The notes under the pieces were generated by a model. The model saw only the letters and a program-made list of their open reading frames with translations, was not told where the DNA came from and ran no database searches. The translations under genes and the position numbers were made by a program. This document shows positions 17,515 to 38,303 of a DNA stretch of 64,000 bases, in pieces. This stretch comes from Candidatus Sulfomarinibacteraceae bacterium. Its GTDB lineage: Bacteria; Acidobacteriota; Thermoanaerobaculia; Thermoanaerobaculales; Sulfomarinibacteraceae. The stretch spans positions 94,746-158,745 of the forward strand of contig CAVQQC010000022.1 of the NCBI GenBank assembly GCA_963714895.1, given 5' to 3'. The stretch's first letter is position 1; the number at the start of each line of letters is the position of its first letter.

Positions 17515-19136
17515 TCAACCGAAGAATTACCCGACGGGCGGTCGCGGCCGTCGCCCTGGTCTTCGCGGTGGGGTGCACACTCGGCCCCGATCCCGAACGC
17601 CCGACGACTGCGGCCGATGTCGGCTCGAGCTACGTCTACGCGCCCGAAGACTCCACGGGGCCGTTGCCGGAGGTGACGCCGTGGTGGCGGGAATTCGGCG
17701 ACGAGACCACCACCGAGCTCGTCGAGCTCGCCCTCGCCCACAACACCGATCTGCGGGCGGCGGCGGCGCGGGTCCTGGAGGCCGAGGCCAACCTGAGCCG
17801 CGCGGGCGGCGCGAGATTGCCCCAGGTCGGCTACGGCGCCGCGGCATCAACCCAACGGAACTCGTTCGTGCTGCCGAACATCGGGCGCCAGGACATTGAC
17901 TCCACGACCTACTCCTACAACTTCAACGTGTCCTGGCAGGCCGATCTCTTCGGCCGCCTCAAGCGAACCCAGCAGTCGACCTGGGCCACCCTGCTGGCTG
18001 AAGAGGCGGCGCGAGAAGCCGTGGTCCACTCGGTGGTCGCCGCGGTCGTCCGCGCGCGGGTTCTGGTCGCCACGACCGCGTGGGCGCTGGACATCAACCG
18101 GCAGATCACCGCGAGTTGGGAGTCGACCACGCGAACGGTCGACCGCCGCTATCGGGCCGGCATCGCCGGCGCTGTCGAGCTCCACCTGGCGCGCGAAAAC
18201 CTGGCATCGGCGCGTGCTTCCGAAGCGACTTTGGAGGGCCAGCTCGAACTGGCGCGGCTCGCTCTGGACGTGCTCGTCGGCCGCCGACCAGGCAGCGCCG
18301 AGATGCTTCCGGCCACCATGCCGCAGCTCCCGTCGCTCGATCCCGTACCGCTCGGTCTACCGGCGGCCCTCCTCGACCGCCGGCCCGATCTGCGGCGCGC
18401 CGAGATGCAGCTTTCAGCCGCCACCTACGGCGTCGGCGCGGCGATCGCAAACCTCTATCCGGATCTCAGTCTGACCGGTTCGGTCGGAGAGTCTGCAGAT
18501 TCGTTCAACCAACTCGATCTGACAAACTTCGTCTACAACATCGTCGCCAACCTCACCGGTCCGCTCTTCAGCGGCGGTCAGCGGCGGGCGGATGTCGATG
18601 CAGCCAAGGCGCGGGCCGAACAGGCTGCGGCGGTGTACGCGGGGGCGGTGTTGAACGCGCTTCGCGAGGTCGAGGATGCGCTGGTGCTCGGCGACTCGTC
18701 GGTTCAGAATTTCTACCTGACGACCGATCGCGTTGCCGAGGCCCGTGCAGCGGACAGCCTCGCGAAACAGCGTTATCAGCGCGGCGTGGAGACCCTGCTC
18801 ACGGTTCTCGAGACCGAGCGTCGGCTGCGTCTCGCCGAACAGGCGATCGTCAACAGCACCATCAGCGTGTGGAACGCACGCATCGATCTCTTCCTCGCCC
18901 TCGGCGGCGACTGGGGCACCGATCCCCCGGATGCCGAACCCGATCGCAGTCGTTGCGAGCCGAGACCCAAGCCGATTCCGAAAATCCGAAATCCGAAATC
19001 CGAAATCCGAAATCTGAAGAGGTACTCTGATGTCTTCCAAAACCCTCAAGTTCGTCATTCCCGTTCTCGTCGTCATCGCCGGTTTCGCCGCAGCAGCAGT
19101 CATCACGTCGGCCCGCAAAGCGCCGCCCAGGGTTGA
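17511..19136 (+). CDS. RND efflux outer-membrane lipoprotein (NodT family); C-terminus uncertain
   Basis: Lipobox VFAVGC and two TolC-like repeats ending ...IDLFLALGGDWG. The ORF then reads through the (AAATCCG)n repeat and 107 nt into the next gene. Confidence 0.85.
   Translation: MINRRITRRAVAAVALVFAVGCTLGPDPERPTTAADVGSSYVYAPEDSTGPLPEVTPWWREFGDETTTELVELALAHNTDLRAAAARVLEAEANLSRAGGARLPQVGYGAAASTQRNSFVLPNIGRQDIDSTTYSYNFNVSWQADLFGRLKRTQQSTWATLLAEEAAREAVVHSVVAAVVRARVLVATTAWALDINRQITASWESTTRTVDRRYRAGIAGAVELHLARENLASARASEATLEGQLELARLALDVLVGRRPGSAEMLPATMPQLPSLDPVPLGLPAALLDRRPDLRRAEMQLSAATYGVGAAIANLYPDLSLTGSVGESADSFNQLDLTNFVYNIVANLTGPLFSGGQRRADVDAAKARAEQAAAVYAGAVLNALREVEDALVLGDSSVQNFYLTTDRVAEARAADSLAKQRYQRGVETLLTVLETERRLRLAEQAIVNSTISVWNARIDLFLALGGDWGTDPPDAEPDRSRCEPRPKPIPKIRNPKSEIRNLKRYSDVFQNPQVRHSRSRRHRRFRRSSSHHVGPQSAAQG
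18976..19016. repeat. Tandem heptamer (AAATCCG)n
   Basis: ccgaaaatccgaaatccgaaatccgaaatccgaaatctg. Confidence 0.85.
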
Positions 19137-23200: not shown

Positions 23201-23432
23201 GACCGCGACGACCTTTCTCGGTCTGACCCCGATGATCTTCGAGACCAGCATGCAGGCCAGGTTCCTGATCCCGATGGCGGTGAGCCTGGGCTACGGCATC
23301 GTCTTCGCCACCGCGATCACCTTGATCCTGATCCCGACCCTGTACCGCATTCTCGAGGACCTGAAGAGCTGGGTCGGGGCGACGACCGAAGAGGTCAGGG
23401 TGAGCCGGCAGGTGACGACGGCGGAAGGCTGA
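20223..23432 (+). CDS. RND efflux transporter permease (AcrB/AcrD/AcrF family)
   Basis: 1069 aa, 12-TM/2-loop architecture. VVLGIVVDDAIVVGENI and ALTGVVVNDSLILVD motifs. Confidence 0.93.
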   Translation: MNDSRKGPLAWFAANHVAANILMIFILVSGALSLFSVVIEVFPEIETDTVTVRVPYRGASPAEAEEGVCIRVEEAIASIEGIKRIRSSAQENLGTVTAELEEDADNRKVLDDIKAAVDRIETFPVETEKPVVSEVDTRRRVITIVLYGEASEKTLKALAERVRDEVTALEGISQVEIAGVRNYEISIEVSEDALRRYGLSFETVANAVSMSSLDLPGGAVKTRGGEILLRTKGQLYRGSEFEDIVVVTRPDGTRVELSDVATVIDGFEDTDTATRFDGKRAALIQVYRVGDEGALNVAGTTKEYLADLAPELPAGVSVDTWDDDSIILKQRIGLLLRNARLGLFLVFICLALFLNTRLAFWTTMGIPISFLGGLWLLPYADVTINMISLFAFIVVLGIVVDDAIVVGENIFNYLEAGMKPIDAAITGVREMAMPVTFAIITTVAAFAPLLFVAGTMGKIMRQIPVVVIAVLLMSLVEALLILPAHLSGEGRIFNRIVGPFLGPVERVQSRVQDLLQRWIRGPYRKSLAFALEWRYLTVAVALVFLILSASMVVGGFLKFSFMPRVDSDNMVASLTMPQGTPVSQTETILARIEAAAEVLARDHDEAQPDGSPSIIRHISTTVGQQPSSAGGGPTAQRVSGGDSSHVGEVNVELLGAEDRDVGSAELVSRWREIVGEVPGAVSLTFKANMFSAGDPVSVQLAHRNFDTLLAAVDRLKVIIAEYPGTKDVADSFLPGKKELKLTLTPEGRAAGLTLSDLARQVRAGFYGQEVQRIQRGRDDIRVMVRYPEAERQSRGDIDEMRVRLPGGAEVPFGTVAVVEEGRGYAVINRTDRRRVVTVSSDVEEAVANANEISSDLRAKVLPALARDYPGLTFDFEGEQRQQKESLDSMKINFLVAQLAIFALLAIPFKSYSQPLIIMSAIPFGLVGAVFGHMVMGLDLTMLSMFGMVALTGVVVNDSLILVDLINRMRAEGATVDQAIRESGERRFRPIMLTTATTFLGLTPMIFETSMQARFLIPMAVSLGYGIVFATAITLILIPTLYRILEDLKSWVGATTEEVRVSRQVTTAEG

Positions 23433-23433
23433 A

Positions 23434-23490
23434 GAATTCGGAATTCGGAATTAGGAATTTGTGAATTTCGGATTTCGGATTTCGGATTTT
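23434..23490. repeat. Tandem heptamers (GAATTCG)n followed by (ATTTCGG)n
   Basis: gaattcggaattcggaattaggaatttgtgaatttcggatttcggatttcggatttt. Confidence 0.85.
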
Positions 23491-23550
23491 CCATCACACT
23501 CCCTACGAGAAAGTCAGAGTGCTCACGACGGAAAGCCGTGCGGATACGAG

Positions 23551-23668
23551 TCGCGTGCGGCGGCGGTGCCATTTTTGACATTGTCGGAAGCTCGACGGCG
23601 CCCGTCGGCTGGTCGTTCCGGGCAGACAATGTCAAAGGTGGCTCCGCACGGGAAGCGAGCTCGGAAGG
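23551..23668 (+). other. Conserved structured element, copy A (candidate ncRNA or mosaic repeat)
   Basis: Shares cgcgtgcggcggNggtgccatt...attgtcgg...gacaatgt..aggtggctcc.cgggaagcgagc with 31980-32095. Long helix 23568-23587/23625-23642 with compensatory changes relative to copy B. Confidence 0.5.
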
Positions 23669-23879
23669 TCATGTTCGGTGGCGGGACATTGACGGTCCAG
23701 CCGATTGAGGCGTCGGTGGTGGCAGGCCCTGAAGGACCTGCCTACGGCTTTCAGAAGGGCCATCGAAGGCACGCGGGGCGCGTGCCTCACAGTTGCTCCG
23801 GGTCCCTTTTGTGGGGCAGCCGTCCCGGCTGCCATAGGCACGGGTTTTTCTCGAGCCGTGAACGCAACCGGAACATGAT

Positions 23880-26800
23880 TTGCAGGTATATAGGTTATAT
23901 GTATGTGCGGCGATCATGGTGATGGTTCGGGGAGGTTTGGTGCGAACAACTCAGTTGAGTTTCTTTGTGCTCGCTGCGGTCTCGGCTGTCGCTCGTTTGC
24001 GGCGGCGGCGGGGCCGGCGATTCTCACGGCGCCGCTCGGGTCTGGTCAACGGCGTGATCGAGGTCGAGGTCGACCTCGGTGGCTCGACCGAACCGGCGAC
24101 CCTGTATCTCGACGGCGTCGAGGCGTGTGCGCCGACCGCCGCCGAACCGACCTGCCGCGTTGATCTCGGTCCCGGCCTTCACGTCCACCTGCTGGAATTG
24201 GTGGTGACGGGGACCGACGGGCCGCGTGCAGCGGGTGGAGCGTTGGCTCAATCGCCCGGGCCACGAGGCCGACCTCGAGATCGAGCTCGCGTCGCGACCG
24301 ATCGGCAACGTCTGCGGCGGCCGGCTCAACTGGTTCGACGTCCACGGGCGACAGCCCGCCGCCCTCGAGGCGGAGGCAGCCGGCGAGCGCATGGCGGTGT
24401 CGCCCGACACCAGGACCTTCGGTTATCCCTGCGCCGAGGTCGGCTCGACCGAGGTGGTGACCGCGGAGGTCGTGTTCGACGACGGACGGCGGGCGGCGCG
24501 GTGGCGCTGACCACCGACAGCGGGAGATCGGCCGGCAGCGAACCGCAATCGCTGGTCCTCGAGGCGGCGTCGTCCGGGACCGATCCCTGTGCACCGGCGT
24601 AGCGACCGTCACCGGCGCCGTCCCCGGTGCGGAGCCGCAAGGGTTCGAGGTGGCCTTCGTGCTCGATCCCACGGTGGACGCCGCGGCGCTCGCGGGGCTC
24701 GGCGGCGGTGGGATGACCTCCGCGTGGGACCTCGCGACGACCGCCCTGTCCGACGCCGACCGCTTGTGGTACGTGCGGCCCGACAGTTCCCTGGAGCGGA
24801 TCGACGGTTTTGCCGGGGGCAGGGACATCTGGCTCGGCGGCTTTTTTCAACTCGCCTCGAGCCCGGCGCCCGCCGAATTGCGTCTGGCCGATGCGGTGGC
24901 AACGGCGGGGCTGACCGCCGGCGCCGCTCCTCGCCGACGGGCGGTGGTGCTGGTTCTTGCATCCGGCCAGTCCGCAGACACGAGCCGTTTTTCGGTCGCG
25001 CAGGTGAGGTCATACCTCGCCGAAATCGGGGTGCCGCTGCAGGTCATCCGTACCGAGCGAGGCCCGCTCGGACGGCTGGCCGACGGGCGTCGAGGCGGGT
25101 TCTCTCGATGGGTTCGCGGTTGCCCTCGAAGGCATCAGGGACCGGATCGATGCTCAATGCGTCGCGTGGTTTCCCGCCCTGCTGGAGCAGCGGCAGATCG
25201 CGGCGTTGCTCCCTCGAGGCGTCGCGGTTGCGGGGCGGAGCGACAGCGGTAGCAGTGGCGAACCGGTGTGGCGGCGGGCGGATCTGACCGGTACCGCGTC
25301 CGACAGCCAGCCGAACTCGGGCGAGCCGTTCGAGGGCGAGCAGGTCGAGGTGACGGCCGTCGAGGTGCTGGTCAGAGCGCACGACGGCAAGGGCAACCCG
25401 ATCACCGATCTCGATCGCCGGGGACCTCCAGGTCGCCGAGGACGGCAACACCGTGCCCGTGCTGCAGTTGGAGGCGATCAATTCGCTCGGATGATCCGTC
25501 GAGACGCCGCCGGCGGCCGCCGCAACCAAACCTCAGGCGCCGCTGCCGGCCCGCAAGATCGTTCCGGTTTCGATCTACGTCGAACGCCGGCTCTCGGGTG
25601 CGACCGATATCCAGCCCGCCATCAACGCGCTGAAGGACCAGGCGGACTGGTTGACCTCCCTCGGCCCGGTCGACATCGTGGTCGCCGAGAGCGGGATCGA
25701 GCCCGTTCTCGTGGGCGCGACCGATCCCGAGGTGGTTCGAAATGCTCTCGACGAAGTGAACTCCCTGCCGTCCCACGGTCACGCCATCGAACGCATCCGC
25801 ACCGACTATCTGCGCTACATCCGGGTCTACCCGGACCGCGGCCAGACCTCGCAGTCGGACGCGTCCGAACCTGCGGCAGGCGGATCCTCTTCATCGAGCA
25901 CCCCGGACAACCGGCTTCGGGTCCGCACCATGACCATCGCCCGGACGGCCATCTTCGAAGAGGATGCGCTGCTGACCAGCACCATGGAGCGGATGAACGA
26001 CTGGGCATTGGGGTTGCAGTCCTCCGGGCCGCGGCTCCTGTTCCTCGTGGGGACCGGTTTTGACGAGGACCCGATCGATTTCTACCTGCGCTTTCTCGAG
26101 CAGAAGGACCCCTCGCTCGGGACCGCGGCGCGCGCCGAGTTCATCCGCTACAACCAGGCGGCCCGGGTCGGTTCGGTGGGACGCGAACTGGCGGCCGCCG
26201 GTTGGATGGTGGTTCCGGTCGCGACGCGGATCGCCGGGCAGCAGCGATCGTCGGCGGAGTTTTCGGGCGGCGAGACCTTCCAGTCGTTCATGGGGGTCGG
26301 GGACTCGAACTACCTCCGCGCTGTGGACTTCATGTTGCTGGATCCGCTGGGTTCGCAGCAGCACCTGGCCGAGCCGAGCGGCGGCAAGGTGGTGCTCGGC
26401 GGTGGCGGTCTGAAGAAGCTGATTTCAGAGAGTGCCGGGTGGTACCGGTTGACCTACCAGGTCGCGCGGGCGCCGGACGGGGTGCTGCACGAAGTCGCGG
26501 TCACCAGCGATCGCTCCGAGGTCTCGGTCGAGAGCACCGGCGTGGTGGTGTCGGGCACGTCCGAAGGTCGGGCGGCCATGCGGTTGCGCAAGCTGCTCGA
26601 CGACCCGTCGGCTGCGGGCGAACTGCCGGTGCGGGTGGATGTGGGACCGGCGCGTCCGACCGACGGCAATGTGGTCGAGGCGTCGCTGATCGCCAGCGTC
26701 GAACTGGCTCCGATCGCGCCGCTCTTCTCCGCGGATGGCGCACGCGCCCTGCGCTTTTCGATCGGCGTCCGCTCGGGGCCGGGCGTGCCCTTCGTCTCCC

Positions 26801-26949
26801 ACTCGGTGGTCACGGCGACCGGGGCCGTCGGCGGCATGCAGTTCGAAGCCCCCATCCAGTGGTCGGGCGATGACGCCGAGTTGGCGGTGGTCGTCGAGGA
26901 CCTGGGATCGGGAGCGTGGGGGGGAACCGTCAGTCGGCTCACGAACTGA
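23880..26949 (+). pseudogene. Large secreted protein with VWA-like modules (resembles the VWFA-related Acidobacterial domain family); several frameshifts as assembled
   Basis: Fragments in three frames join sensibly (VIEVEVDLGG...; GFEVAFVLDPTVDAA...VVLVLASGQSADTSRFS; GEQVEVTAVEVLVRAHDGKGNPITDLDRRDLQVAEDGNTVPV; IVPVSIYVERRLSG...). Longest intact piece is 25651-26949. Confidence 0.4.
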
Positions 26950-26968
26950 CCGGCACGCAGGCGACCGG

Positions 26969-27001
<33 letters not shown>

Positions 27002-27063
27002 GGCGGCCCACTCACGCGCCCCTCCGAAACACAGCAGCTTCGCTCCGCGTGCTCATGACGATC

Positions 27064-27146
27064 CTGAAGGTGGGCCAAGGCCCACCCTACTTTGGACCCA
27101 AACCTCGAGTCGAATTGTAGGGTGGGCTTCAGCCCACCTTCAGAGC
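27064..27146. repeat. REPIN-like doublet: two inverted copies of the GTAGGGTGGGC...GCCCACC REP
   Basis: ctgaaggtgggccaaggcccaccctac (27064-27090) and gtagggtgggcttcagcccaccttcagag (27118-27146) are reverse complements of each other. Confidence 0.75.
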
Positions 27147-27200
27147 TGTCGGCCGTGATTCGAGCGGTAATTTTCGGCGCTGGTCGGCTCAATCCTCAAG

Positions 27201-27611
27201 TCAACCCAAGCCCCAAGCCCCTAAAACTGTCGACCCCGGTCCGGTCGGAAGACGTTTTGGTAGTGGCGGACGCGCCACGGGAAGCAATCCGCCGATCCGT
27301 TCGATGGTGACGAGATCGAAACGGCACGGCCGGTCCCACAGCGAGAACCGGCCGAGATAGGCGGCCGAGACCCGGGTCAGGATCCTTTTCTTTTTGTCGT
27401 CGAGCGCGGCGGCGGCGCCGCCGAAGTCATCGCTCGATCGCGCCTTGACCTCGACGAAGACGATCTCGCCGCGGCGCTCCATCACCAGGTCGAGCTCGCC
27501 GCCGGCGCCGCGCCAGTTGCGGTGGCGCAGCCGGTAGCCCTTGCCGAGGAGCAATAGCAGCGCGAACCACTCGGCGGTACGTCCGAAATGGTGGCGGCGG
27601 AGCGGGGACAT
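27201..27611 (-). CDS. yraN: YraN family endonuclease (UPF0102)
   Basis: GRTAEWFALLLLLGKGYRLRHRNWRGAGGELDLVMERRGEIVFVEVKARS...CRFDLVTI. The C-terminal tail runs into the AAGCCCC repeat. Confidence 0.8.
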   Translation of the reverse strand: MSPLRRHHFGRTAEWFALLLLLGKGYRLRHRNWRGAGGELDLVMERRGEIVFVEVKARSSDDFGGAAAALDDKKKRILTRVSAAYLGRFSLWDRPCRFDLVTIERIGGLLPVARPPLPKRLPTGPGSTVLGAWGLG

Positions 27612-27659
27612 GGGTGGATTGTAGTGCCCCCTGAAGATCCTCGCTGGAATGTGCAGGCG

Positions 27660-27734
27660 GGACGCCCGCACCACAAGTCCGAACGGATCGTGGAGACGGA
27701 ATTGTGGGGCACGCGTCTCGCGGCCGAAACCGTT
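27660..27734. repeat. Paired inverted hairpins: GTGCAGGCGGGACGCCCGCAC-CACAA ... TTGTGG-GGCACGCGTCTCGCGGCC
   Basis: Same architecture at 29350-29417 and 52896-52971, and a single unit at 23811-23833. Stems differ but stay complementary. The GGGAC/GTCCC loop and CCACAA tail are conserved. Confidence 0.7.
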
Positions 27735-27745
27735 ATCATGCGCCG

Positions 27746-28774
27746 GTGCGAACCGATGATTTCGACTTCGATCTCCCTCAGGAGCTGATCGCGCAACACC
27801 CGGCGCCGCGGGGCACTTCGCGGTTGATGGTGCTCGATCGTGCCTCGGGTGCGGTGAGCCATCGCGATGTGAGCTGCCTGCCGGAGCTGTTGCGCCCCGA
27901 CGATCTGCTGCTGCTCAACGACACCCGGGTGATCCCGGCGCGGCTCTTCGCCCACCGCCCGACGGGGCGGAAGTTCGAGCTGCTGCTCCTGCGGCAGATC
28001 GACGGCGGCGAGTGGGAGGCGCTGCTGCGGCCCTCCGCCCGGGCCCGCACCGGCGAGCGGCTGGAGCTGGCCGACGGTGGTGCAGTGATTCCGGCCGAGC
28101 GAAGAGGGGAGGGCCGGTGGCTTGTCCGTTTCGACCCGGTCCTCGACCTCGAGCGGCTCGACCGCCTCGGTGAGATGCCGCTGCCGCCCTATATCGAGCG
28201 CCCCGAGGGCGGAGTCGACGAGGATCGAACCACCTACCAGACGGTCTACGCCGCCAACCCGGGCGCGGTGGCCGCGCCGACCGCCGGTCTCCACTTCACG
28301 GGCGAACTGCTCGACACGATCCGCGCGGCGGGCGTCGAGATCGCCTTTCTGACCCTCCACGTCGGTCTCGGCACCTTCCGCCCGGTGAAGGTCGAGGACA
28401 TCGCCGACCACGAGATGCACGAGGAGTGGTTCAACGTCTCAGAGGCCACGGCGGCGGCGGTCAATCGCGCTCTCGACCAGGGGCGCCGGATCGTCTGCGT
28501 CGGCACCACCTCGGTGCGCGCTCTCGAAGGGGCGCTGGCGGTGGGGGAGGGCCGGCTGCAACCGGGCGACGGGTGGACCCGGATCTTCATCACACCCGGC
28601 TTCGAATTTCGCGGCGCCGGCGCCCTGCTCACCAACTTCCACCTGCCGCGCTCGACCCTGCTGATGATGATCAGCGCCTTCGCCGGCCGCGACCACGTCC
28701 TTGCCGCCTACGCCGAGGCCGTCGCCGAGCGCTACCGTTTCTTCTCCTACGGCGACGCGATGTTCATCGGGTAA
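27746..28774 (+). CDS. queA: S-adenosylmethionine:tRNA ribosyltransferase-isomerase
   Basis: DFDFDLPQELIAQHP, LLLNDTRVIPARL, GEMPLPPYI, AAPTAGLHFT, VGTTSVRALE, TNFHLPRSTLLMM, FFSYGDAMFI. Confidence 0.93.
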   Translation: MRTDDFDFDLPQELIAQHPAPRGTSRLMVLDRASGAVSHRDVSCLPELLRPDDLLLLNDTRVIPARLFAHRPTGRKFELLLLRQIDGGEWEALLRPSARARTGERLELADGGAVIPAERRGEGRWLVRFDPVLDLERLDRLGEMPLPPYIERPEGGVDEDRTTYQTVYAANPGAVAAPTAGLHFTGELLDTIRAAGVEIAFLTLHVGLGTFRPVKVEDIADHEMHEEWFNVSEATAAAVNRALDQGRRIVCVGTTSVRALEGALAVGEGRLQPGDGWTRIFITPGFEFRGAGALLTNFHLPRSTLLMMISAFAGRDHVLAAYAEAVAERYRFFSYGDAMFIG

Positions 28775-29024
28775 AACGCGGCGATCTATGCCGCCTACCA
28801 GGCGTTGATTCAAGGGGGTAGGGGCGGGGCATGCCCCGCCCTGTGTCGCACGATATTCGGCAGTGAACCGCAGCATTCAACAGCGTTGTTAAATTATGTA
28901 TTCAATGTCTTTACCATTGCCAAAGGAAATTGACTGTCAACTCGTGAGGACTCGCGACTGCTGACTGTCAATAAGATCCGGTCCGGCGCCCGGACGCCTT
29001 GGGCAGGTTCCAGAGTGACCCGAG

Positions 29025-29213
29025 TCAGTCGGCATCGTCGCCCGGCTTCTTTGGGTCGGGCGGCGCCTTCCGTTCGTCGTCCTCGCCGAAGATCCGCAGC
29101 GCGGGCGTCTCGAGATCGTCCATCTGACCGCTCCGCACCGACCAGATGAAGGCCATCACCCCGACCAGGGCGAGGAGCAGGGCGATCGGCAGGGCGATGT
29201 AGATGGCTGACAT
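29025..29213 (-). CDS. ccoS: cbb3-type cytochrome oxidase maturation protein CcoS/FixS
   Basis: 62 aa, single TM helix, [41 protein letters not shown]. Confidence 0.85.
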
Positions 29214-29234
29214 GGGAGTTTGATTGTAGAGTCA

Positions 29235-29462
<228 letters not shown>

Positions 29463-29468
<6 letters not shown>

Positions 29469-31877
29469 CGTCCGTGCCCGGTACGAACTCAGCACGACCG
29501 TCATCGACTGAGAGCGGCATCAGGATGGCGGCGAGGATCGGGCTCATGTGGCCGGTGATGGCGAAGGCCACGGCGACGATGTTGTAGGCGAGTGAAAACA
29601 CGAGGTTGCGGCGGATGACGCCGAGCGTCCGCCGCGATCCCTCGAGCAGCTCCACCACCGGGGTGAGCCCGGGCCGGCCGAGATAGACATCGGCCGCCGC
29701 CAGCACCGCCTCGGCGCCGCCGTGGACGCCGATGCCGACCGTCGCTGCAGCCAGCGCCGCCGCGTCGTTGACGCCGTCGCCGACCATGGCCACGGTTTCG
29801 TCGCCGCTGTGACCGAACCGCCTCGAGCTTGTCCTCGGGGGTCGCCGCACCGCGCGCTGCCTCGGGCGGCACCCCGACCTGGCGGGCGATCGTCTGCACC
29901 ACCACCGGGTGGTCGCCCGACAGGATCTCCACCCGCCATCCGCCGTCGCGGATCGCCGACGATGGAATCCGGCGGTGTCGGGGCGCAGACGGGTCGCCGA
30001 CCCCAGCGACCGCCAGCGACTCGCGCCGATCGACAGCCGCCACCACCGGGCTCAGACCTTCGGCGGCGAAGGCCGCCACCGCCTCGGCGGCATCTGCCGG
30101 CAGCTCGCCGAGGCTGCGCTCGACGATAGGCCGCCGAGCCGACGATGCATCGCCGGCCGTCGACCACGCCCTCGATTCCGGCGCCGGTGGTCTCGCGGAC
30201 CTCGGTCCGCCTCGAGCGCCGAGCCGTCGCCCAGCCGCCGCCACCAGGGCGCGCGCCACCGGGTGGGCCGAGTGACGCTCCACCGCCGCCACCAGCGGCC
30301 GCAGATCTTCGTCGCCCCACCACCGGATCACCGCCAGCCGGCCCTCGGTGAGGGTCCCGGTCTTGTCGAGGATCATCAGCCCGGGCCGGGCGAGATTCTC
30401 CAGCGCATCGCCGCCCTTGATGAGGATCTTCTTGCGGGCGGCGCGGCCGATGGCGGCGCTCACCGCCAGGGGCGTCGCGAGGCCGAGCGCGCACGGGCAG
30501 CTGACGATCAGCAGCGCCACCGCGTGCTGGATCGCGTTGGCCGGGTCGAGCCGCAACCAGATCACGACCGTGGCCAGCGCCAGCGCCAGCACGATGGCGA
30601 CAAACCACCCCGAGATCCGGTCGGCCAGCAACACCACCGGCGCGCGCCGCTGCGCGCCCTCCTCGACCAGCCGCATCAGGCGGCCCGACGCGGGTGTCTT
30701 CGCCGGTCGACCGCACCTCCACCAGGAGGCGGCGCCGAGAGATTGACGGTGCCCGCGTGCACCGGGTCGCCGGCCACGACCTCCTCGGGCAGCGACTCGC
30801 CGGTGAGCAGCGAGCGGTCGAGCGTCGACGTGCCGTCGATCACGACCCCGTCGGCGGGGATCGAGTCCCCGGCTCGTACCTCGACCACCGCACCCGCCGC
30901 CAGGGACTCGAGCGGGACCTCGCGCACAGCTGTTGCCCTCGACCAGCCGGGCGGTCGACGGCGCCAGCGAGAACATCAGCTCGGTCGAGCTCGCCGCCTT
31001 GAGCTGCTGCCGCCGCTGCAGGAATCGCCCCACCAGCAGAAAGAAGATCAGCGCCGTCACCGACTCGAAGTAGATCTCGCCCGAGCCGCGCACCGTGTTG
31101 ACCGCGCCCTGGGTGAAGCCGGCGAGGATGCCGATGGCGATGGGCAGGTCCATGTGGAGGCTGCGGGTGCGCAGCGCCCCCCACGCGCCGCGGTAGAAGA
31201 CCGATGCGCACCACAAGACCGAGGGCAGGGCGAGACCGAGGCTGACCCAGCGGAAGAGCGTGCTGTACTCGTCGGCGATCGAGTGGAAGTGGCCGCCGTA
31301 GAGAGCGAAGGCGATCAGCATGACGTTGCCGGCGATCGCCCCCGCCACCGCAATGCGAACCAGCAGCGATCGTTCCTCGCGCCGCGCCATGTCGCGCGCC
31401 TCGACCCCGCGGAAGGGGTGGGGGACATAGCCGATGGAGTCGAGGAACCGCGCCACGTCCGAAAGCGGGGTCGTTCGCGGGTCCCAGGTCACCGTGGCCA
31501 GCGCGCGGCCGAGATCGAGGCGGACCTCGGCCACCCCGTCCACCACCACCGTCAGCTTCTCCACCAGCCACACGCAGGCCGCGCAGTGGACCCCCTCGAG
31601 ATAGAGCTCGACGGTCTCGAGCCCCGACGGCAGCGTCCGGCAGTAGAGGCGGTGGAAGGCGGGGTCGTCGAACTCCGAGAACGTCTTGCCCGGAGACCCG
31701 CGCCGCCTGCTCCGGCGCCTCGATCCGCGACTTGATGTCGTAGTAGCCGTCGAGCCCGTGCCCGCGGATCACCTCGTACGCCACCCGGCACCCCGAGCAG
31801 CAGAACTGGTGTTCGGCGCCGTCCTCCACCAGCCCGGCGGGGACCGGCAGACCGCAGTGATCACACTCGACGGACAC
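29463..31877 (-). pseudogene. ccoI: Copper-translocating P-type ATPase CcoI/FixI (at least 5 frameshifts as assembled)
   Basis: N-terminal MSVECDHCGLPV, HMA domain LYLEGVHCAACVWLVE, TGESLP, SCPCALGLATP, ILDKTGTLTEG, MVGDGVNDAAAL and ILMPLS are distributed over three reading frames on the minus strand. Confidence 0.85.
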
Positions 31878-31905
31878 GGTCGGATTGTCTCATGGGAGCA
31901 GTCGC

Positions 31906-31927
31906 GGAATTCGGAATTCGGAATTCC
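31906..31927. repeat. Tandem heptamer (GGAATTC)3
   Basis: gcggaattcggaattcggaattccatcaca. The same 'ccatcaca' junction occurs at 23490-23497. Confidence 0.8.
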
Positions 31928-31979
31928 ATCACAGATTCCGACCGACAGGAGATGCTCGAGTGCTGAGAGCTGGGCGAAA

Positions 31980-32095
31980 CCGCGTGCGGCGGAGGTGCCA
32001 TTCTCAATATTGTCGGACTCTCGATTACCCACTTCGGCAGGGTGATGCGGGCCGACAATGTTGAGGTGGCTCCTCGCGGGAAGCGAGCCCGAAAG
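31980..32095 (+). other. Conserved structured element, copy B (candidate ncRNA or mosaic repeat), about 270 nt upstream of intI
   Basis: Helix 31997-32016/32052-32070 and internal hairpin ATTACCC-acttcggca-GGGTGAT. Sequence and structure are related to 23551-23668. Confidence 0.5.
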
Positions 32096-32321
32096 ACGGT
32101 GATTCAGAATCCTATCCGTTCCCCGAACCTCGGCGCTGGGTGTATCATTGAAAAGAAGGCTCTCGAACACCAACCGACTGAGACGAGGCGTGGTCTCAAA
32201 ATCAAATCGCACTTCTGCACGCCAGGAGAGCCTAAGACATTATGGCTCAACAGGTTGCATGAGCAATCATAGTGCGGAAGCTACGTTCACCCGATCAACA
32301 CCCCGCTCCGAATCGAGATTC

Positions 32322-32350
32322 TTGACAACTCCAGAATCCTGTTTTATGCT
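32322..32350 (+). promoter_or_regulatory. Putative intI promoter
   Basis: TTGACA (32322-32327), 17 nt, TATGCT (32345-32350). The ATG at 32365 would leave a very short leader. Confidence 0.45.
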
Positions 32351-32364
32351 CCATTTACACCATC

Positions 32365-33376
32365 ATGGGAAACGTTCAACAGTTCCCCGTCGCCGCCTCC
32401 CGGCGCCCCCGGCGCCTCATGGACCGGGTCATTTCCGAGATCCGGGTCCGCCACTACTCGATCCGGACCGAAGAGGCCTACACCGCCTGGATCCGGCGCT
32501 ACATCCGGTTTCACCGCAGCCACCCGCGCGATCTCGACGGCGACGACCTCAACCGCTTTCTGACCCACCTCGCCGAACACGACCGGGTCGCGGTCTCGAC
32601 CCAGCGCCAGGCCATGTCCGCCATCCTCTTCCTCTACCGCCACGTGCTCAAGACCAACTTCGAGTGGCTCGACGACGTGGTGCGCGCCCGCCAACCGCGC
32701 CGCCTGCCCAACGTCCTCAGCCGCGAAGAAGTGGCGGCCGTGCTCTCCCGTCTCGAGGGCATCCCACAGCTCGTGGTGCTGCTGCTCTACGGCACCGGCA
32801 TGCGGATCCTCGAGTGCCTGCGGCTTCGCGTCCAGGACATCGACTTCGATCTCGGCCACATCACCATCCGCCGACCCAAGGGCGGCCGCGACCGGGTGAC
32901 CATGCTTCCGGAATCCACCCGCGACCGCCTGCAGCGACCACCTGATCAACGGTCCGCACTCTCCACGAACAGGACCTCGCGGAAGGCTTCGGCAACGTCT
33001 ACCTGCCGGACGCCCTCGCCCGCAAGTATCCCCACGCCGACCGCGACTGGAAATGGCAGTACGTCTTCCCGGCCGCCAGCCGCGGCATCGATCCGCGCAC
33101 CGGCATCGATCGCCGCCACCACCTCCACGAGTCGGTCATCCGAAAGGCCGTCTACGCCGCGGCTCGCGCTGCAGCCATTCCGAAGAAGGTCAGCTGCCAC
33201 ACCTTTCGCCACAGCTTCGCGACCCACCTCCTGATGGCCGGCCACGACATCCGCACCATCCAGGAACTGCTCGGCCACAAAGACGTCAAGACCACCATGA
33301 TCTACACCCACATCCTCGGCAACTCGGCGGGCGCGGCGTCACCAGCCCGGCCGACACCCTCGGGACGGCAGCGTGA
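32365..33376 (+). pseudogene. intI: Integron integrase IntI (three single-base indels as assembled; probably intact in reality)
   Basis: RVRHYSIRTEEAYTAWIRRYIRFH; box I GTGMRILECLRLRVQDID; IntI-specific insert [23 protein letters not shown]; box [15 protein letters not shown]; catalytic Tyr in [13 protein letters not shown]; C-terminal [10 protein letters not shown]. Frame changes at about 32937, 32952 and 33325-33330. Confidence 0.85.
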
Positions 33377-33377
33377 G

Positions 33378-33404
33378 CACGCTAACATCCGTCGTGTTAG
33401 CGTG
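33378..33404 (+). other. 9-bp perfect inverted repeat CACGCTAAC-N9-GTTAGCGTG (attI/attC-like core; candidate recombination site)
   Basis: Contains AAC...GTT cores right after the corrected intI stop (33374-33376). Confidence 0.3.
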
Positions 33405-33465
33405 CGATCCAAGCACGATAACACGACCATCGGTTGTTGAAAAAGAACTGATCTGAAATCAATTA

Positions 33466-33494
33466 TTGACTTGAGATCAATTGCGATATAGATT
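33466..33494 (+). promoter_or_regulatory. Putative outward promoter downstream of intI (Pc-like, or the TA-pair promoter)
   Basis: TTGACT (33466-33471), 17 nt, TAGATT (33489-33494). 12 nt upstream of the ATG at 33506. Confidence 0.45.
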
Positions 33495-33505
33495 GGAAAC
33501 TGGCC

Positions 33506-33820
33506 ATGGTGGGCAGGCCGGACATCACGGAGCAGTTGCCTGGCGGCCAGGCGTTGCGTCTCGCGAAGACGGTCATTCGCGATGGGTCGACGGTCTTCAC
33601 CCGGCACGCGCGCGACGAGATGGAGAATGACGATCTTCTGGAAACAGACGTGGTCAACGCCATCAGCGGGGGAGTGATCAGCGAGCCGGGAGAGCTAGGG
33701 CACAGGGGCGACTGGTGCTATCGAGTCAGGACCGGCAGGGTGACCGTGGTGATCATGTTCCGAAGTGTCGGGGAGATGGTGGTTGTGACGGCATGGCGAG
33801 AGCGGCGGAGAGGACGATGA
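33506..33820 (+). CDS. DUF4258-like small protein (putative toxin)
   Basis: 104 aa, FTRHARDEMENDDLLETDVVNAI...VTVVIMFRSVGEMVVVTAW. ATGA overlap with the downstream antitoxin-like gene. Confidence 0.6.
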   Translation: MVGRPDITEQLPGGQALRLAKTVIRDGSTVFTRHARDEMENDDLLETDVVNAISGGVISEPGELGHRGDWCYRVRTGRVTVVIMFRSVGEMVVVTAWRERRRGR

Positions 33821-34317
33821 AAGAAAAGGTCTCGTGTCTGGAGTGTGGCGCCTTCATGGAGATCACGTTGGGCCCATATCGTTACGGCCGAGGGCTCGAC
33901 GTAGTGGTCCACGACGTCGAGACCAGGCGTTGCCCGGAGTGCGGCCACGACGAGGTGGTGATCCCAAGAATCGAGGAGCTCCACAGGACCATCGCGCGCG
34001 CGATCTCTCAGAGACCGGCCCGCCTCGAGCCCAATGAGATCCGTTTTCTGAGAACCTACCTGGGGTACTCGAGCATGGATTTCGCCGCGTTGCTGGGGGT
34101 GACGCCGGAAACCGTGTCGCGATGGGAACGGACGTCGAAGCCGCAGAAGATGGGGAAAGTGGCTGAACGCCTGCTCCGGATGCTGGCCCAGTACGGGGAA
34201 CCCGATCGGATCTACGACCTCGAGGCCGTGCTGCTGACTGACGGTAACGCTCGCGGAACGGGCCCGGTCATGATCGCCCAATCGAGCGGATCGTGGAAGG
34301 TCGCCGAGGCATGTTGA
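33817..34317 (+). CDS. MqsA/YgiT-type antitoxin-like protein (zinc ribbon + XRE HTH)
   Basis: CLECG...CPECG zinc ribbon followed by the HTH IRFLRTYLGYSSMDFAALLGVTPETVSRWE. Confidence 0.7.
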   Translation: MKEKVSCLECGAFMEITLGPYRYGRGLDVVVHDVETRRCPECGHDEVVIPRIEELHRTIARAISQRPARLEPNEIRFLRTYLGYSSMDFAALLGVTPETVSRWERTSKPQKMGKVAERLLRMLAQYGEPDRIYDLEAVLLTDGNARGTGPVMIAQSSGSWKVAEAC

Positions 34318-34393
34318 GTCGCGCTACCCGTCCTGTTCGCAACGGAATGTTATTTCGTCGAATCCGTACGTCTCGTTCCCTAGCTTTAGTATC

Positions 34394-34410
34394 GCTAATA
34401 TGAGTTAGGC
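34394..34410 (+). other. Candidate attI simple site (GCTAA-N5-GTTAGGC)
   Basis: gctaatatgaGTTAGGC. The layout resembles the L-box/R-box arrangement of known attI sites, and the R box is identical to the array's attC R' core. Confidence 0.35.
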
Positions 34411-34440
34411 AATAGTACTTTCCGCGCACATAGAGTCTTT

Positions 34441-34641
34441 ATGGAAGATCTGCGGCACCGAATCAAAGAAGTGGCGAAAAGGGCTGAAGCGGCCGGGAGG
34501 ACGAATTTCTCATGGCGCAATCTCCTGGTTGAGCTATTGCAAATAACCGAAACGCTCCAATCGAGGGTTAAACCTCCGTCTGGCGAAATGGGACGATCGC
34601 TGGGTTCGCCCATCAATTGCGAAGATCAGCACGATGTGTAA
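34441..34641 (+). CDS. Hypothetical protein (first cassette-like unit)
   Basis: 66-aa ORF only; no recognisable motifs. The rest of 34635-34960 holds only short or broken ORFs. Confidence 0.3.
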   Translation: MEDLRHRIKEVAKRAEAAGRTNFSWRNLLVELLQITETLQSRVKPPSGEMGRSLGSPINCEDQHDV

Positions 34642-34968
34642 CCCGAAGTTGGCGCGTATACTCCGTGCTGAGGCAACGGCACAGAGCAAGCCTCCCAGCC
34701 GGCTCGTCGCCGACATTGTGAAGCAATTCGTGTCAAATCCCCAGCAGAGGAGACTGACACGTGGTGGAATGCGCCGACCAAAGTTGTCCGCGCCCTAATG
34801 GGACGCGAAACGTTGACTGCCGCCGTCGATCCGCCCATTAAGGAGATGTTTGAATCCATGATTCCTCGTGTAAAGGGCGTCTTGCAAACAAAAGTCAGCT
34901 TCTCGCTTGGGTCATCTGGAATCATCTAGGCCGCCCCACAGACCGAAGTTGACAATGACAAATGATCT

Positions 34969-35035
34969 GCCTAACACCTCATTCCAGCGGACCCTCACCG
35001 CCGCGGTTCGGTCCGCTGAATTGGGGCCGTTAGGC
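34969..35035 (+). other. attC site (family 1)
   Basis: GCCTAAC acctcattccagcggacc...ggtccgctgaattggggcc GTTAGGC. Confidence 0.85.
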
Positions 35036-35130
35036 TCTGAAAAACATGAGCGATTGCAAACCCCGAATCGCAACTGACCTGGACTGATCTCATTATCGAA
35101 GATGTCAAACCGGAAGACGCCGGTCGCTGG

Positions 35131-35506
35131 TTGGCAGAATGGGACTGGCTCGTGTCTGGACGATTGGCTCGGTGTTTGATCACGATGTTCGGAGACTGGT
35201 TCCTGCCAGAAGCCCGACGGATCTACGCAGATGCTCGATGTCCTGGAAGGCACGGTGAAGACTGTCGCCAATACTCCTGGAGAGTTCCGGTTGTTGGTCA
35301 ACGATCAGACCTGGCAAGAAGAAAATCTGCTCTCACCGCTCGTACTCAGACTCCACGAGGGCGGGATGATTCTCGGTAAACACCAATGCTATGCGGTGGC
35401 ACCGCATCCGCTCTTGGTCGGGAAGACTGAGCCGGAATTCATCATGGTCATGGATCTCTCCGTGTGGCAATCAATCTGTTCTCAGACGTTTTATCGGAAG
35501 GCCTAG
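35131..35506 (+). pseudogene. DUF1851/Tdi1-like cassette protein, frame-disrupted as assembled
   Basis: GDWFLPEARRIYADA in one frame joins MLDVLEGTVKTVANTPGEF...QCYAVAPHPLLVGKTEPEFIMVMDLSVWQSICSQ in the next (about 35225). The N-terminus is also broken. Confidence 0.4.
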
Positions 35507-35529
35507 ATTCGGTATGAGTTGCGATATGC

Positions 35530-35598
35530 GCCTAACACCTCATTCCAGCGGACCCCCACCCGCGGCGGGTGGTGTCCGCTGAATTCGGACCGTTAGGC
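35530..35598 (+). other. attC site (family 1)
   Basis: GCCTAAC...cccacccgcggcgggtgg...GTTAGGC, 69 bp. Confidence 0.88.
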
Positions 35599-35619
35599 CA
35601 TCGCTGGGAGGACAACGTC

Positions 35620-35940
35620 GTGATTTGGACACTCTCGAGAGACAGCGCTCCGCTCGAGGCACCGTTAGTTCGGCACTGTGATCATTGCGGTGGCGATGAA
35701 CTCTCGCAGGACTACTTGTGGTACAGCTTTGTTTCGGTCTACGGACTCTTCCCGTTTATTAAATCGAAATCACTTGTTCGAGTTTGTGCCAGGTGCGGCA
35801 CGGAACACGACCTCGGCCCGGAAGCAGTTCCCAACCATGCAAGTCGCGAGATTCCGTTTTTTCGGCGGTTTGGGTGTTTGCTCTTGGTCGGCTTTCTTGT
35901 GGTCTTTGCAGGGGTTTCATTTGTTATCAACAACCCGTAG
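35620..35940 (+). CDS. Hypothetical cassette protein: zinc-ribbon-like CxxC pairs plus a C-terminal TM helix
   Basis: HCDHCGG...CARCG, then FGCLLLVGFLVVFAGVSFVI. GTG start just after the attC. Confidence 0.5.
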   Translation: MIWTLSRDSAPLEAPLVRHCDHCGGDELSQDYLWYSFVSVYGLFPFIKSKSLVRVCARCGTEHDLGPEAVPNHASREIPFFRRFGCLLLVGFLVVFAGVSFVINNP

Positions 35941-35950
35941 GATTCTGCGT

Positions 35951-36019
35951 GCCTAACACCTCATTCCAGCGGACCCCCACCCGCGGCGGGTGGTGTCCGC
36001 TGAATTCGGACCGTTAGGC
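35951..36019 (+). other. attC site (family 1)
   Basis: GCCTAAC...GTTAGGC, 69 bp. Confidence 0.88.
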
Positions 36020-36151
36020 CGGTCAGGTAGGTAAGGTGAGTAGCAGGAACATCACACACCGTTGGGGCAAGTGCAGTGCCAAACCGGAGGCGCGGTTTCG
36101 GACACCGTCAGTGGAACGCGCTTCCGACGTGAACGCGGAAATATTGTCCGC
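36020..36151 (+). other. ORF-less 132-bp cassette
   Basis: Bounded by two canonical attC sites. The only ORF (36036-36218) runs into the attC. Contains the hairpin AAACCG-gaggcg-CGGTTT. Confidence 0.6.
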
Positions 36152-36220
36152 GCCTAACACCTCATTCCAGCGGACCCCCACCCGCGGCGGGTGTGGTCCG
36201 CTGAATTCGGACCGTTAGGC
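36152..36220 (+). other. attC site (family 1)
   Basis: GCCTAAC...GTTAGGC, 69 bp. Confidence 0.88.
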
Positions 36221-36236
36221 CAGCAGGAAACGAGAC

Positions 36237-36914
36237 ATGGGCACAAGCGTAGACATCGTAGCCTTTGCAGATACCGGCGAGCCTCTTGATGTTTGGGCCC
36301 ATCGGTTGGTCGCAATCTCGACCGCCGCCGAACCGTCTGGTGATGTTGTCGTTCATCTCACCCGAACACCGGCTGGTTCTCATCGCTTCCTTTGGATCGG
36401 GATCTCGGATGACCGCGGTATTAACGCTGGGCTCTACGAGGAAGCTGCCCGGATCGCGAGCGAGTATTCCGAGAATCCCGTGATCGCCGCCTGGTACTCG
36501 GATTCAGCAGGGATGGCTGGATACAAGGTCTTTGAACAGGGCAGGTGTTCGTCTTCAAATGATACTGAGTTGTCCCCGGAAATCGACATCGTCAACCTAT
36601 TCTGCAGACCCTTTGGCGAAGCCTATCCCGGGTCAGAGATTGGCTGTCCTGACGATGTCTTTGACTTATGCTACGGCGAGAACGCAACCGAGGAATCCTA
36701 TGTAATTGGGTCATCCGGGACGCCGCTAGAATCTCCGCAATCTTGGCTTCCACCTCCGCCCGAACCGCAGGGCTGGCGAATCCCACATGAGTTTCGGTGG
36801 GGCAGAAAACCCCGTTCGTTCCTCAAGGGCTTGGCAGTAGTCTTTGGGCTTCTGTCCACAGGTTTGATTCTATTCACCGTCGGTTGGTTCTTGTATGAGA
36901 CAGTATTGAAATAG
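36237..36914 (+). CDS. Hypothetical cassette protein with a C-terminal TM anchor
   Basis: 225-aa ORF filling the cassette. C-terminal LAVVFGLLSTGLILFTVGWFLY. No recognisable family. Confidence 0.55.
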   Translation: MGTSVDIVAFADTGEPLDVWAHRLVAISTAAEPSGDVVVHLTRTPAGSHRFLWIGISDDRGINAGLYEEAARIASEYSENPVIAAWYSDSAGMAGYKVFEQGRCSSSNDTELSPEIDIVNLFCRPFGEAYPGSEIGCPDDVFDLCYGENATEESYVIGSSGTPLESPQSWLPPPPEPQGWRIPHEFRWGRKPRSFLKGLAVVFGLLSTGLILFTVGWFLYETVLK

Positions 36915-36923
36915 GCATGCGAT

Positions 36924-36998
36924 GCCTAACACCTCATTCCAGCGGACCCGAGTCCGCGGCGGCCGCGGCCTCGGTCCGCTGAATTCGGACCGTTAGGT
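36924..36998 (+). other. attC site (family 1 variant, 75 bp)
   Basis: GCCTAAC...GTTAGGT. Confidence 0.85.
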
Positions 36999-37010
36999 AG
37001 AATTCCCTAA

Positions 37011-37463
37011 ATGAAAAGAACTGACCCTGTTTTGCGCCGCTATCTCGCCGTTGGACCCTTGTATCTGCCGATCGCCACAATCGTTGTTCATATCATCGGC
37101 AGCATGGTTTTGGACGTGGCAACTGGCGGGTTCGGCGGTATTCTAGCCGCCCCGATTCTGGCGATTTTCGGTTTGGTTGTTCTGCCCGTCGAACTCCTTG
37201 CTGTCACTCTGCAGTGGTACCTTTACTATGCGCTGTCCTTTTCGAAACGAGCATTCCGGATGCTGTTTGTCGTTTCGGCCGTTCTCGTGCCGGCTCTGGT
37301 TGCGATCCTGGGACCAAAGGAAGAAAATTCTGAAGTCCAATGGGCAGTTGGCTTCGGGATAGGTGCGGCGGTGGCCGGAATTTCGACACTCCTGGCGCTT
37401 CGGTGGATCGTTAGAGCTATTTCGAAAAGCCTCGAAAGGGGAATTCCGGCGACATCAGAATAA
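37011..37463 (+). CDS. Hypothetical integral membrane cassette protein
   Basis: 150 aa with about 4 TM helices. No recognisable family. Confidence 0.55.
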   Translation: MKRTDPVLRRYLAVGPLYLPIATIVVHIIGSMVLDVATGGFGGILAAPILAIFGLVVLPVELLAVTLQWYLYYALSFSKRAFRMLFVVSAVLVPALVAILGPKEENSEVQWAVGFGIGAAVAGISTLLALRWIVRAISKSLERGIPATSE

Positions 37464-37483
37464 TTGGGGAGCAAAATACGTAC

Positions 37484-37553
37484 ACCTAACACCTCATTCC
37501 AGCGGACCCTCACCCGCGGCGGGTGGCGGTCCGCTGAATTCGGACCGTTACGT
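37484..37553 (+). other. attC site (family 1, degenerate R' GTTACGT)
   Basis: ACCTAAC acctcattccagcggaccc...GTTACGT. Confidence 0.8.
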
Positions 37554-37572
37554 CGTCAATCGAAGTACATGG

Positions 37573-37601
37573 TTGCACGGTTACCGTGAAAGCATTATAT
37601 T
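37573..37601 (+). promoter_or_regulatory. Putative cassette-borne promoter (higBA-1)
   Basis: TTGCAC, 17 nt, TATATT. Confidence 0.4.
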
Positions 37602-37621
37602 GAAACGAGAGGTGGCAGGCC

Positions 37622-37915: not shown

Positions 37916-37928
37916 AGGAGAGAATCCG

Positions 37929-38216: not shown

Positions 38217-38224
38217 TACGTGAT

Positions 38225-38293
38225 ACCTAACACCTCATTCCAGCGGACCCTCACCCGCGTTGGGTGCGGTCCGCTGAATTCGGACCGCTAGGC
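38225..38293 (+). other. attC site (family 1, degenerate R' GCTAGGC)
   Basis: ACCTAAC...GCTAGGC. Confidence 0.8.
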
Positions 38294-38303
38294 GTTTAAC
38301 GCC

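Follow-up and report, generated by a model that had tools for sequence, protein, structure and literature searches.

Two hairpin elements of a Candidatus Sulfomarinibacteraceae bacterium as probable members of an interspersed modular repeat family

The ERIC elements, or IRUs, of Enterobacteriaceae and Vibrio are extragenic imperfect palindromes of ~120-130 nucleotides (nt), which are non-coding and are found in high copy number and in either orientation to transcription. The BOX elements of Streptococcus pneumoniae are composed as boxA-boxB(n)-boxC with a boxB of 45 nt, and REP sequences are imperfect palindromes of ~20-40 nt with a conserved 5' tetranucleotide; BIME clusters show an alternating orientation, and REP/BIME elements bind gyrase and IHF and are accompanied in the genome by a cognate RAYT (Y1 transposase) gene with units at its sides. 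In a stretch of 64,000 nt from a Candidatus (Ca.) Sulfomarinibacteraceae bacterium (GenBank assembly GCA_963714895.1, contig CAVQQC010000022.1, positions 94,746 to 158,745 of the forward strand), called the window below, I analysed two similar hairpin elements, copy A (23552-23664) and copy B (31981-32092), both on the + strand. They are probably two members of a high-copy, modular, interspersed family of intergenic repeats in the Thermoanaerobaculia, mainly in Ca. Sulfomarinibacteraceae. The family is apparently undescribed, with several hundred copies in the genomes of sediment Acidobacteria, and no report on repeats in this clade was found in the literature. Its classification as a bacterial interspersed, structured and modular intergenic repeat, in the class of ERIC, BOX, BIME/RIME and MITE-like elements, is well supported.

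The number of copies emerged when one genome per GTDB species was scanned with the 19-base pattern AGGTGGCTCCNNNCGGGAAGCG, which yielded at least 109 loci; all but four chance matches carry the whole element. A profile search with nhmmer found 173 units in the 0.87 Mb of DNA of these matched loci, and a covariance model built from 113 copies (CM R1) finds ~137 units above 75 bits in 743 kb. Among the matches listed, almost all loci belong to metagenome-assembled genomes (MAGs) of Ca. Sulfomarinibacteraceae and other Thermoanaerobaculia, and the units come from at least nine Thermoanaerobaculia assemblies; besides the Ca. Sulfomarinibacteraceae MAGs there are one 'Acidobacteriota bacterium' MAG and two other Thermoanaerobaculia MAGs. 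The original prediction, made from the letters of the window, had described a two-copy element, which holds for this window and not for the family.

The unit is ~120 nt long (113-121) and consists of a 5' frame, an imperfect hairpin of 27 pairs and a 3' frame. A locus comprises one to four units, and most loci have a single one; groups of two to four are arranged head to tail with a period of ~121 nt, and neighbouring units less than 600 nt apart are co-oriented in 41 of 41 cases, with a spacing mostly of 119-126 nt. The units resemble ERIC elements in size, in their long stem-loop, in high copy number, in their occurrence in either orientation and in the absence of coding capacity, but they belong to another taxon and have asymmetric frames, head-to-tail arrays and a polar leader; tandem arrays are not known for ERIC elements, nor is any sequence similarity between them and the units. 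With BOX and RIME/BIME the units share a modular build, in which internal units of variable number stand between a 5' and a 3' module, as well as the intergenic location, the high copy number and a predicted stable structure. They differ from BOX in that the repeated unit measures ~121 nt, each unit is a 27-bp hairpin, and the leader contains heptamer microsatellites, and from REP/BIME in that the unit is ~113-121 nt long with a 27-pair stem and that neighbours never alternate in orientation. The miniature inverted-repeat transposable elements (MITEs), such as Correia/NEMIS and RUP, are similar in their length of ~100-150 nt, in having long inverted arms and a large number of copies, and in subfamilies that look derived from different source copies. 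However, no clear target-site duplication was seen for the units, no autonomous insertion sequence with the same arms was found in the 0.87 Mb of matched loci, and the frames, which are the most conserved part of the units, flank the inverted arms without being inverted themselves. CRISPR arrays, in which short direct repeats alternate with unique spacers and which are accompanied by cas genes, differ from loci with a ~121-nt period, mostly a single unit, and tips with motifs that are common within subfamilies; cas genes were not searched for.

Copies A and B and the fold of the unit

Copy A is a single unit with the 5' frame CGCGTGCGGCGGCGG, the hairpin and the 3' frame CCGCACGGGAAGCGAGC, and scores 129 bits under CM R1 (E = 7e-37); copy B, also a single unit, scores 119.6 bits and has a positional ortholog in locus L005. 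They are the only matches to the model in the window with filters off. Their similarity, as originally described, is borne out by the alignment of 23420-23720 with 31890-32150, in which the perfect-identity blocks CGCGTGCGGCGG-N-GGTGCCATT and AGGTGGCTCC-NCN-CGGGAAGCGAGC enclose a less conserved middle, and by the string CGCGTGCGGCGGNGGTGCCATT, which is found in the window at 23552 and 31981 only, with a chance expectation of 0.00. The main helix is formed in copy A by 23561-23587 with 23623-23650 (columns 33-61 with 106-134 of the family alignment) and in copy B by 31990-32016 with 32052-32078, where one U is bulged; in both copies the family alignment agrees with the minimum free energy (MFE) fold. 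The helix of the original prediction is real, though it had been given too short a span. Pairing the arms by hand reproduces the three double compensatory swaps that had been noticed between A and B (U-A to C-G twice, G-C to A-U once), and in addition one C-G pair changes to U.G and a G.A at the helix top changes to G-C, while U.G wobbles and a U.U mismatch near the helix base are retained in both copies. The folds of the two copies are more stable than those of shuffled sequence (z = -4.4 for A and -3.95 for B). On the reverse strand, A and B score 31 and 28 bits under CM R1, and the reverse strand of the unit sites found in the 743 kb reaches only 30-45 bits.

In the alignment of 113 copies (A2), the 5' frame reads CGCGTGCGGCGGAGG and the 5' arm GTGCCATYTTYRRYATTGTYKG, followed by a variable tip of ~35-45 nt, the 3' arm CMRACAATGYTRAAGGTGGC and the 3' frame TCCTCNCGGGAAGCGMG (conserved CCTCNCGGGAAGCG). 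The selection on structure that had been proposed from two copies is supported by covariation in the family. Pairing is found in 92.6% of the cells (27 pairs in 113 copies), versus 43-53% after a shift of the 3' partners by one to three columns, and two-sided changes are observed in 176 cells versus 63 in shuffles, with 0 of 500 shuffles reaching the observed number. Several pairs are present as three pair types; covarying pairs are, for instance, 49/118 (CG 61, UA 37), 52/116 (AU 53, GC 36, CG 5), 59/108 (UA 87, CG 19, GC 4), 60/107 (GC 52, UA 41) and 36/130 (AU 99, CG 7, GC 1). The helix, AT-rich within a GC-rich genome, carries one bulge (column 132) and a U.U mismatch at columns 40/127 that is found in 112 of 113 copies. 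Compensated states are common to subfamilies, and rare variants mostly break pairs (22 Watson-Crick, 16 G.U, 12 A.C and 32 other), as is expected if source copies must fold and individual insertions drift.

Not every predicted structure is a property of the family. The tip hairpins that had been pointed out within the main helix pair well in A and B, but over the family a mean of 3.6 out of 7 candidate tip pairs is formed, compared with 3.2 with shuffled partners. An outer helix between the two frames (columns 24-28 with 139-143) was dropped as a candidate, since, in spite of 84% pairing, covariation is low and 50 of the 113 copies do not form pair 25/142. The argument that U.G pairs identify a + strand RNA proved to be weak: G.U cells outnumber A.C cells by 257 to 12, an excess confined to three columns, two of which are fixed by the search pattern. 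The comparison of G.U and A.C counts, with an asymmetry that rests on three columns, is thus not a decisive strand test, and the folded strand may be either RNA or DNA.

Some units combine the same frames and basal pairs with a different, shorter and GC-rich hairpin, and a few have almost none. Such short units, of the form GGTGCCTGGCATCC-GGCCCG..CGGGCC-GCGTGCCTGGCATCC, are found in L005 (3863-3935), L003 (1087), L040 (7307), L101, L047 and L065, intermixed with long units in the same arrays, and nearly empty frames in L104 and L052. The short hairpins appeared to be surrounded by a 13-nt target duplication, which, when read by eye, turned out to be the near-palindrome TGCCTGGCA pairing with itself; there is no duplication.

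Leader, arrays and turnover

In its canonical form, the leader of the family consists of (GGAATTC / GGATTTC / AATTTTG)n, followed by CCCRCCC...CCACCGACA...CGA and by GTGCTCAGGGTGGGTGGGAC, with the motif GTGCTSA fixed 28 nt before the first frame. The leaders in the window, CCATCACA...GAGTGCTCA, are variants of it. The leader of copy A (23434-23525, + strand) has its AT-rich heptamer array at 23434-23489, CCATCACA at 23491-23498 and GTGCTCA at 23519-23525, and the same architecture is present at ~25 other loci; that of copy B (31905-31966, + strand) has the array at 31905-31925, CCATCACA at 31926-31933 and GTGCTGA at 31960-31966. The array of copy A begins 2 nt past the stop codon of an acrB-like gene, and that of copy B lies ~10 nt from the start codon of a divergent P-type ATPase gene. 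Over the family, 34 out of 107 unit arrays have an AT-rich heptamer array within 220 nt upstream and 0 out of 107 have one downstream. The heptamer array noticed before both copies therefore reflects a real and polar association, but ~16 such arrays in the window make an array by itself unspecific. No sigma-70-like promoter was found in the leaders of A and B by a scan that does detect the promoter of the nearby integrase gene intI, and no U-tract terminator was found after the units. The units are followed by recurrent 3' tails, e.g. GAAAGCCGGGTTCACTCGAACG and TTCACTCGAACG. Leader, variable number of tandem units (differing between orthologs) and recurrent 3' tails are thus found together at dispersed intergenic loci, as in the modular mosaic repeats of BOX, RIME or MIRU-like type, and the intergenic DNA of these genomes is itself a patchwork of repeats.

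Orthologous loci show how the arrays change. Locus L078, with flanks that are ~85% identical, is the ortholog of the locus of copy A in another species, and L005 is that of copy B. At one locus the number of units is 1 in L025 and 3 in L037, L088 differs from L025 by exactly one extra whole unit, which belongs to a different subfamily, and a 440-nt composite in L108 is missing from L001. The indels between orthologs are whole periods or composite blocks, and no clear target-site duplication accompanies them. In 11 positional orthologs the identity amounts to 80.6% in the flanks, 86.9% in frame plus stem and 64.9% in the tip, which indicates that selection or gene conversion holds the frames and stems. 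Around copy A, a conserved block (23517-23755, + strand) comprises the unit, its 3' tail and a small hairpin GGCAGG..CCTGCC (23715-23754); according to pairwise alignment and to the identities of high-scoring segment pairs, it is ~98% identical to L078, with four or five differences, as against ~85% in the coding flank and a much more diverged leader. The block has a sharp 5' boundary at GAGTGCTCA, and an indel of ~90 nt is located ~10-20 nt beyond the block. Its identity is an outlier, for which strong constraint or a recent exchange are possible causes. Compensatory evolution in situ between positional orthologs was not used as evidence, as paralogous alignments and the gain and loss of units confound it.

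The two arms of the hairpin stay together. The right arm is located at most 110 nt from the left arm in 136 of 143 cases; of the other seven left arms, five have variant right arms that the pattern missed, and downstream of two there is no right arm. In the matched loci, none of the 143 left arms brackets an open reading frame (ORF), as the split arms of an autonomous element would.

Several other repeats were encountered in the same intergenic regions. Units are frequently followed by AAGAGATTTCTCCACTCGC and then by several CTCGGTCGAAATGACA ~40 nt apart (L108 at ~2300-2600, L011, L045, L070, L090 and others), a repeat family that is absent from the window. The small repeated hairpin GGCAGGCCCTGAAGGACCTGCCTACGG downstream of copy A (23715-23754) is also found in L090, L107, L026, L068 (twice) and L102. 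The window, in a GC-rich genome, contains ~16 intergenic AT-rich heptamer microsatellites (GGAATTC/GGATTTC), e.g. at 11858-11890, 14234-14266, 18977-19018, 26970-27001, 29235-29267, 29433-29468 and 57522-57546, often 2-40 nt from a stop or start codon, and several octamer arrays. Two pairs of inverted GGATTTC arrays, ~38 nt apart (4033-4062 on the + strand with 4100-4132 on the - strand, and 57601-57625 with 57664-57696), form long hairpins with weak matches of 13-14 bits to the unit model, and no unit adjoins them. Dense tandem repeats are located at 16406-16699, where a 42-nt repeat in about five copies (16423-16632) has the octamer arrays AGGCAGTG, GGCAATGG and GCCTCACT at its sides, and at 14145-14334, where GCAGGGGA / CTCCCTTT arrays surround a heptamer array.

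Neighbouring genes, the integron and rival explanations

With respect to the neighbouring genes the orientation of the units is close to random, with no indication of a dedicated position upstream or downstream of genes. Both neighbours are co-oriented with the unit in 20 cases and opposite to it in 16, while the neighbours are convergent in 23 and divergent in 20; the gene downstream of the unit is co-oriented in 47 cases and opposite in 45. The positions of copy A just after the acrB-like gene and of copy B upstream of intI are probably incidental.

A chromosomal integron (32322-38891) lies next to copy B; it has intI and the cassettes on the same strand and is conserved in L005. The gene intI extends from 32365 to ~33400, with at least two frameshifts. 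The first genes after it resemble a toxin-antitoxin pair, with a DUF4258 gene at 33506-33820 (E = 2e-7) and a gene for an MqsA-like zinc-ribbon/HTH protein at 33715-34317, the latter below the Pfam cut-off. Between copy B and the intI promoter lies a non-coding block of lower GC content (32121-32282), ~90% identical in L005, which holds the hairpin GAGAC-gaggcgtg-GTCTC and has no copy in the other loci. On the other side of copy B, the P-type ATPase gene (29501-31895, - strand) is split over two frames, with the N-terminal metal-binding domain in one ORF (30840-31877) and the E1-E2 ATPase and hydrolase domains in another (29501-31573). The split is due to a frameshift or to a sequencing error; as intI is frameshifted too, the quality of the assembly comes into question.

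The original prediction saw in both copies a small RNA or a 5'-leader module upstream of + strand genes, intI and a 'VWA-like' gene after copy A; as a cis-acting, riboswitch-like leader, the unit would regulate these genes. Both copies are indeed located ~270 nt upstream of + strand ORFs, and the helix covaries, but the even split in the orientation of downstream genes, the occurrence of units in tandem and in convergent intergenic regions, and the absence of any constant position or orientation of units in 5' untranslated regions are not what is found for riboswitches and cis-leaders. Moreover, intI has its own promoter, TTGACA-17-TATGCT at 32322-32350, ~230 nt downstream of copy B, which leaves a leader of ~7 nt; this promoter is conserved in L005, where the unit and intI are separated by an extra gene. 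For the ORFs downstream of copy A no Pfam match, and thus no Pfam VWA domain, was found, so that the 'VWA-like' label lacks support. As had been stated from the outset, no known RNA family was recognised: a scan of the window with Rfam 15 gave no match at gathering thresholds, and at E up to 10 chance matches to miRNAs and snoRNAs only. I consider a 5'-leader very improbable for these dispersed units. The same prediction had held that further copies lying on either strand without covariation, as in a plain DNA repeat, would speak against it; the copies do covary, yet they are found in either orientation relative to genes. The observation of both copies is thus confirmed and its interpretation is partly supported: selection on the structure is real, but a small RNA or leader tied to intI and to the gene after copy A finds no support. 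Still less credible is the idea that the unit is an attC-like recombination site of the adjacent integron, even though copy B lies beside intI and the unit, like attC sites, is a structure-defined, imperfect hairpin with conserved imperfections (the nearly invariant U.U and the bulge) and a variable tip; attC sites are thought to act as folded single strands. By this criterion of an imperfect hairpin there is resemblance only. The true attC sites of the window, six canonical sites (GCCTAAC...GTTAGGC) downstream of intI at 34969-35035, 35530-35598, 35951-36019, 36152-36220, 36924-36998 and 38823-38891, have no sequence in common with the unit, and a test of the core sites against this array contradicts the identity. 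The units lack the R''/R' cores (RYYYAAC ... GTTRRRY) and have the helix base GGTGCCA...TGGCTCC; AAC/GTT cores are missing in two of three subfamilies, and a fortuitous CAAC/GTTG inside the stem is found in one only. In addition, the units are dispersed over more than 100 loci that have no cassette ORFs, and copy B and the cassette array lie on opposite sides of intI.

There are two further explanations. The unit could be a site in double-stranded DNA, for instance a cruciform or a palindrome to which a topoisomerase or a nucleoid-associated protein binds, by analogy with the REP/BIME elements. High copy number, extragenic location, independence from gene orientation, AT-rich stems in a GC-rich genome, and conservation of frames and stems between species are consistent with this. 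However, a site read as a duplex has no need of compensation along a 27-pair helix or of a mismatch that 112 of 113 copies retain, and it leaves the strict head-to-tail polarity and the leader unexplained, so that it appears improbable. Somewhat less improbable, though still unlikely, is that the arrays encode a structured RNA in many copies, in which case the leader starts transcription, the units yield hairpin RNAs, and the frames are sites for processing or protein binding. This would fit the strictly polar composite of a leader and co-oriented units, the conserved asymmetric frames and U.U mismatch, the three wobble positions that pair on the unit's own strand only, and the far better conservation of the A block than of its flanks, with its sharp 5' boundary. 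On the other hand, neither leader has a sigma-70-like promoter, the units lack a U-tract terminator, the rare variants show no excess of G.U over A.C (16 vs. 12), and the tip structure is not conserved; in the MFE fold the A block is closed by a long-range helix of 10 bp, but L078 does not support this helix, as three of its few substitutions disrupt it without compensation. It would also be unusual for a genome to have hundreds of nearly identical RNA genes.

Several points weigh against a family of interspersed repeats as well. No mobilising gene, clear target-site duplication or clean-ended fresh insertion was found at the matched loci, so that I infer mobility rather than observe it, and the loss of units by recombination between frames accounts as well for the observed indels. 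Between species, frames and stems are better conserved than the coding flanks, and the A block reaches ~98% identity; for this, gene conversion or a function for the host is a better explanation than DNA that is purely selfish. The pattern used for the scan fixes part of the 3' arm and the frame in the 113 aligned copies, by which conservation there is overstated and invariance partly a matter of construction, and the orientation counts were made with a self-trained gene caller based on codon usage, which is crude. The absence of an evident promoter and terminator and the random gene orientation are arguments for a selfish or passive element, whereas the polarity of leader and units, the asymmetric conserved frames and the conservation between species keep alive an RNA gene or a host function.

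Propagation and significance

As an interspersed repeat, the family would behave like REP/BIME, ERIC or BOX elements. Units may spread and be reshuffled one by one, through recombination or by a putative trans-acting enzyme that acts on the conserved frames. The hairpin would be preserved in the propagating lineages because these depend on the folding of the element in single-stranded form, as DNA or as RNA, and individual insertions would then drift, mostly in the tip. Any transcript shared by a unit and a neighbouring gene would acquire a very stable stem-loop. Both the mechanism of spread and the requirement for a single-stranded hairpin are inferred here.

There is a small chance that the units are instead cassettes of a new hairpin-based system, or that the arrays are transcribed and cut into hairpin RNAs bound by one protein. 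As cassettes, the units would use the frame (GCGGAGG ... CCTCNCGGGAAGCG) as a docking site for different hairpins, with new units joined head-to-tail, and a dedicated enzyme would act on folded single strands, starting from the polar leader. If true, either version would amount to a new mechanism and thus to more than another selfish repeat.

These results do away with an attractive but mistaken connection of a structured element with the control of an integron integrase. They also document a very abundant structured repeat in uncultured and ecologically important Acidobacteriota of marine and soil sediments. Such repeats break assemblies, create spurious ORFs and can mimic regulatory RNAs by genuine covariation, which makes the family model CM R1 useful for annotation. 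With its conserved frames and stems, strict polarity and heptamer microsatellites, the family offers a system for asking how intergenic repeats spread and why their hosts keep them.

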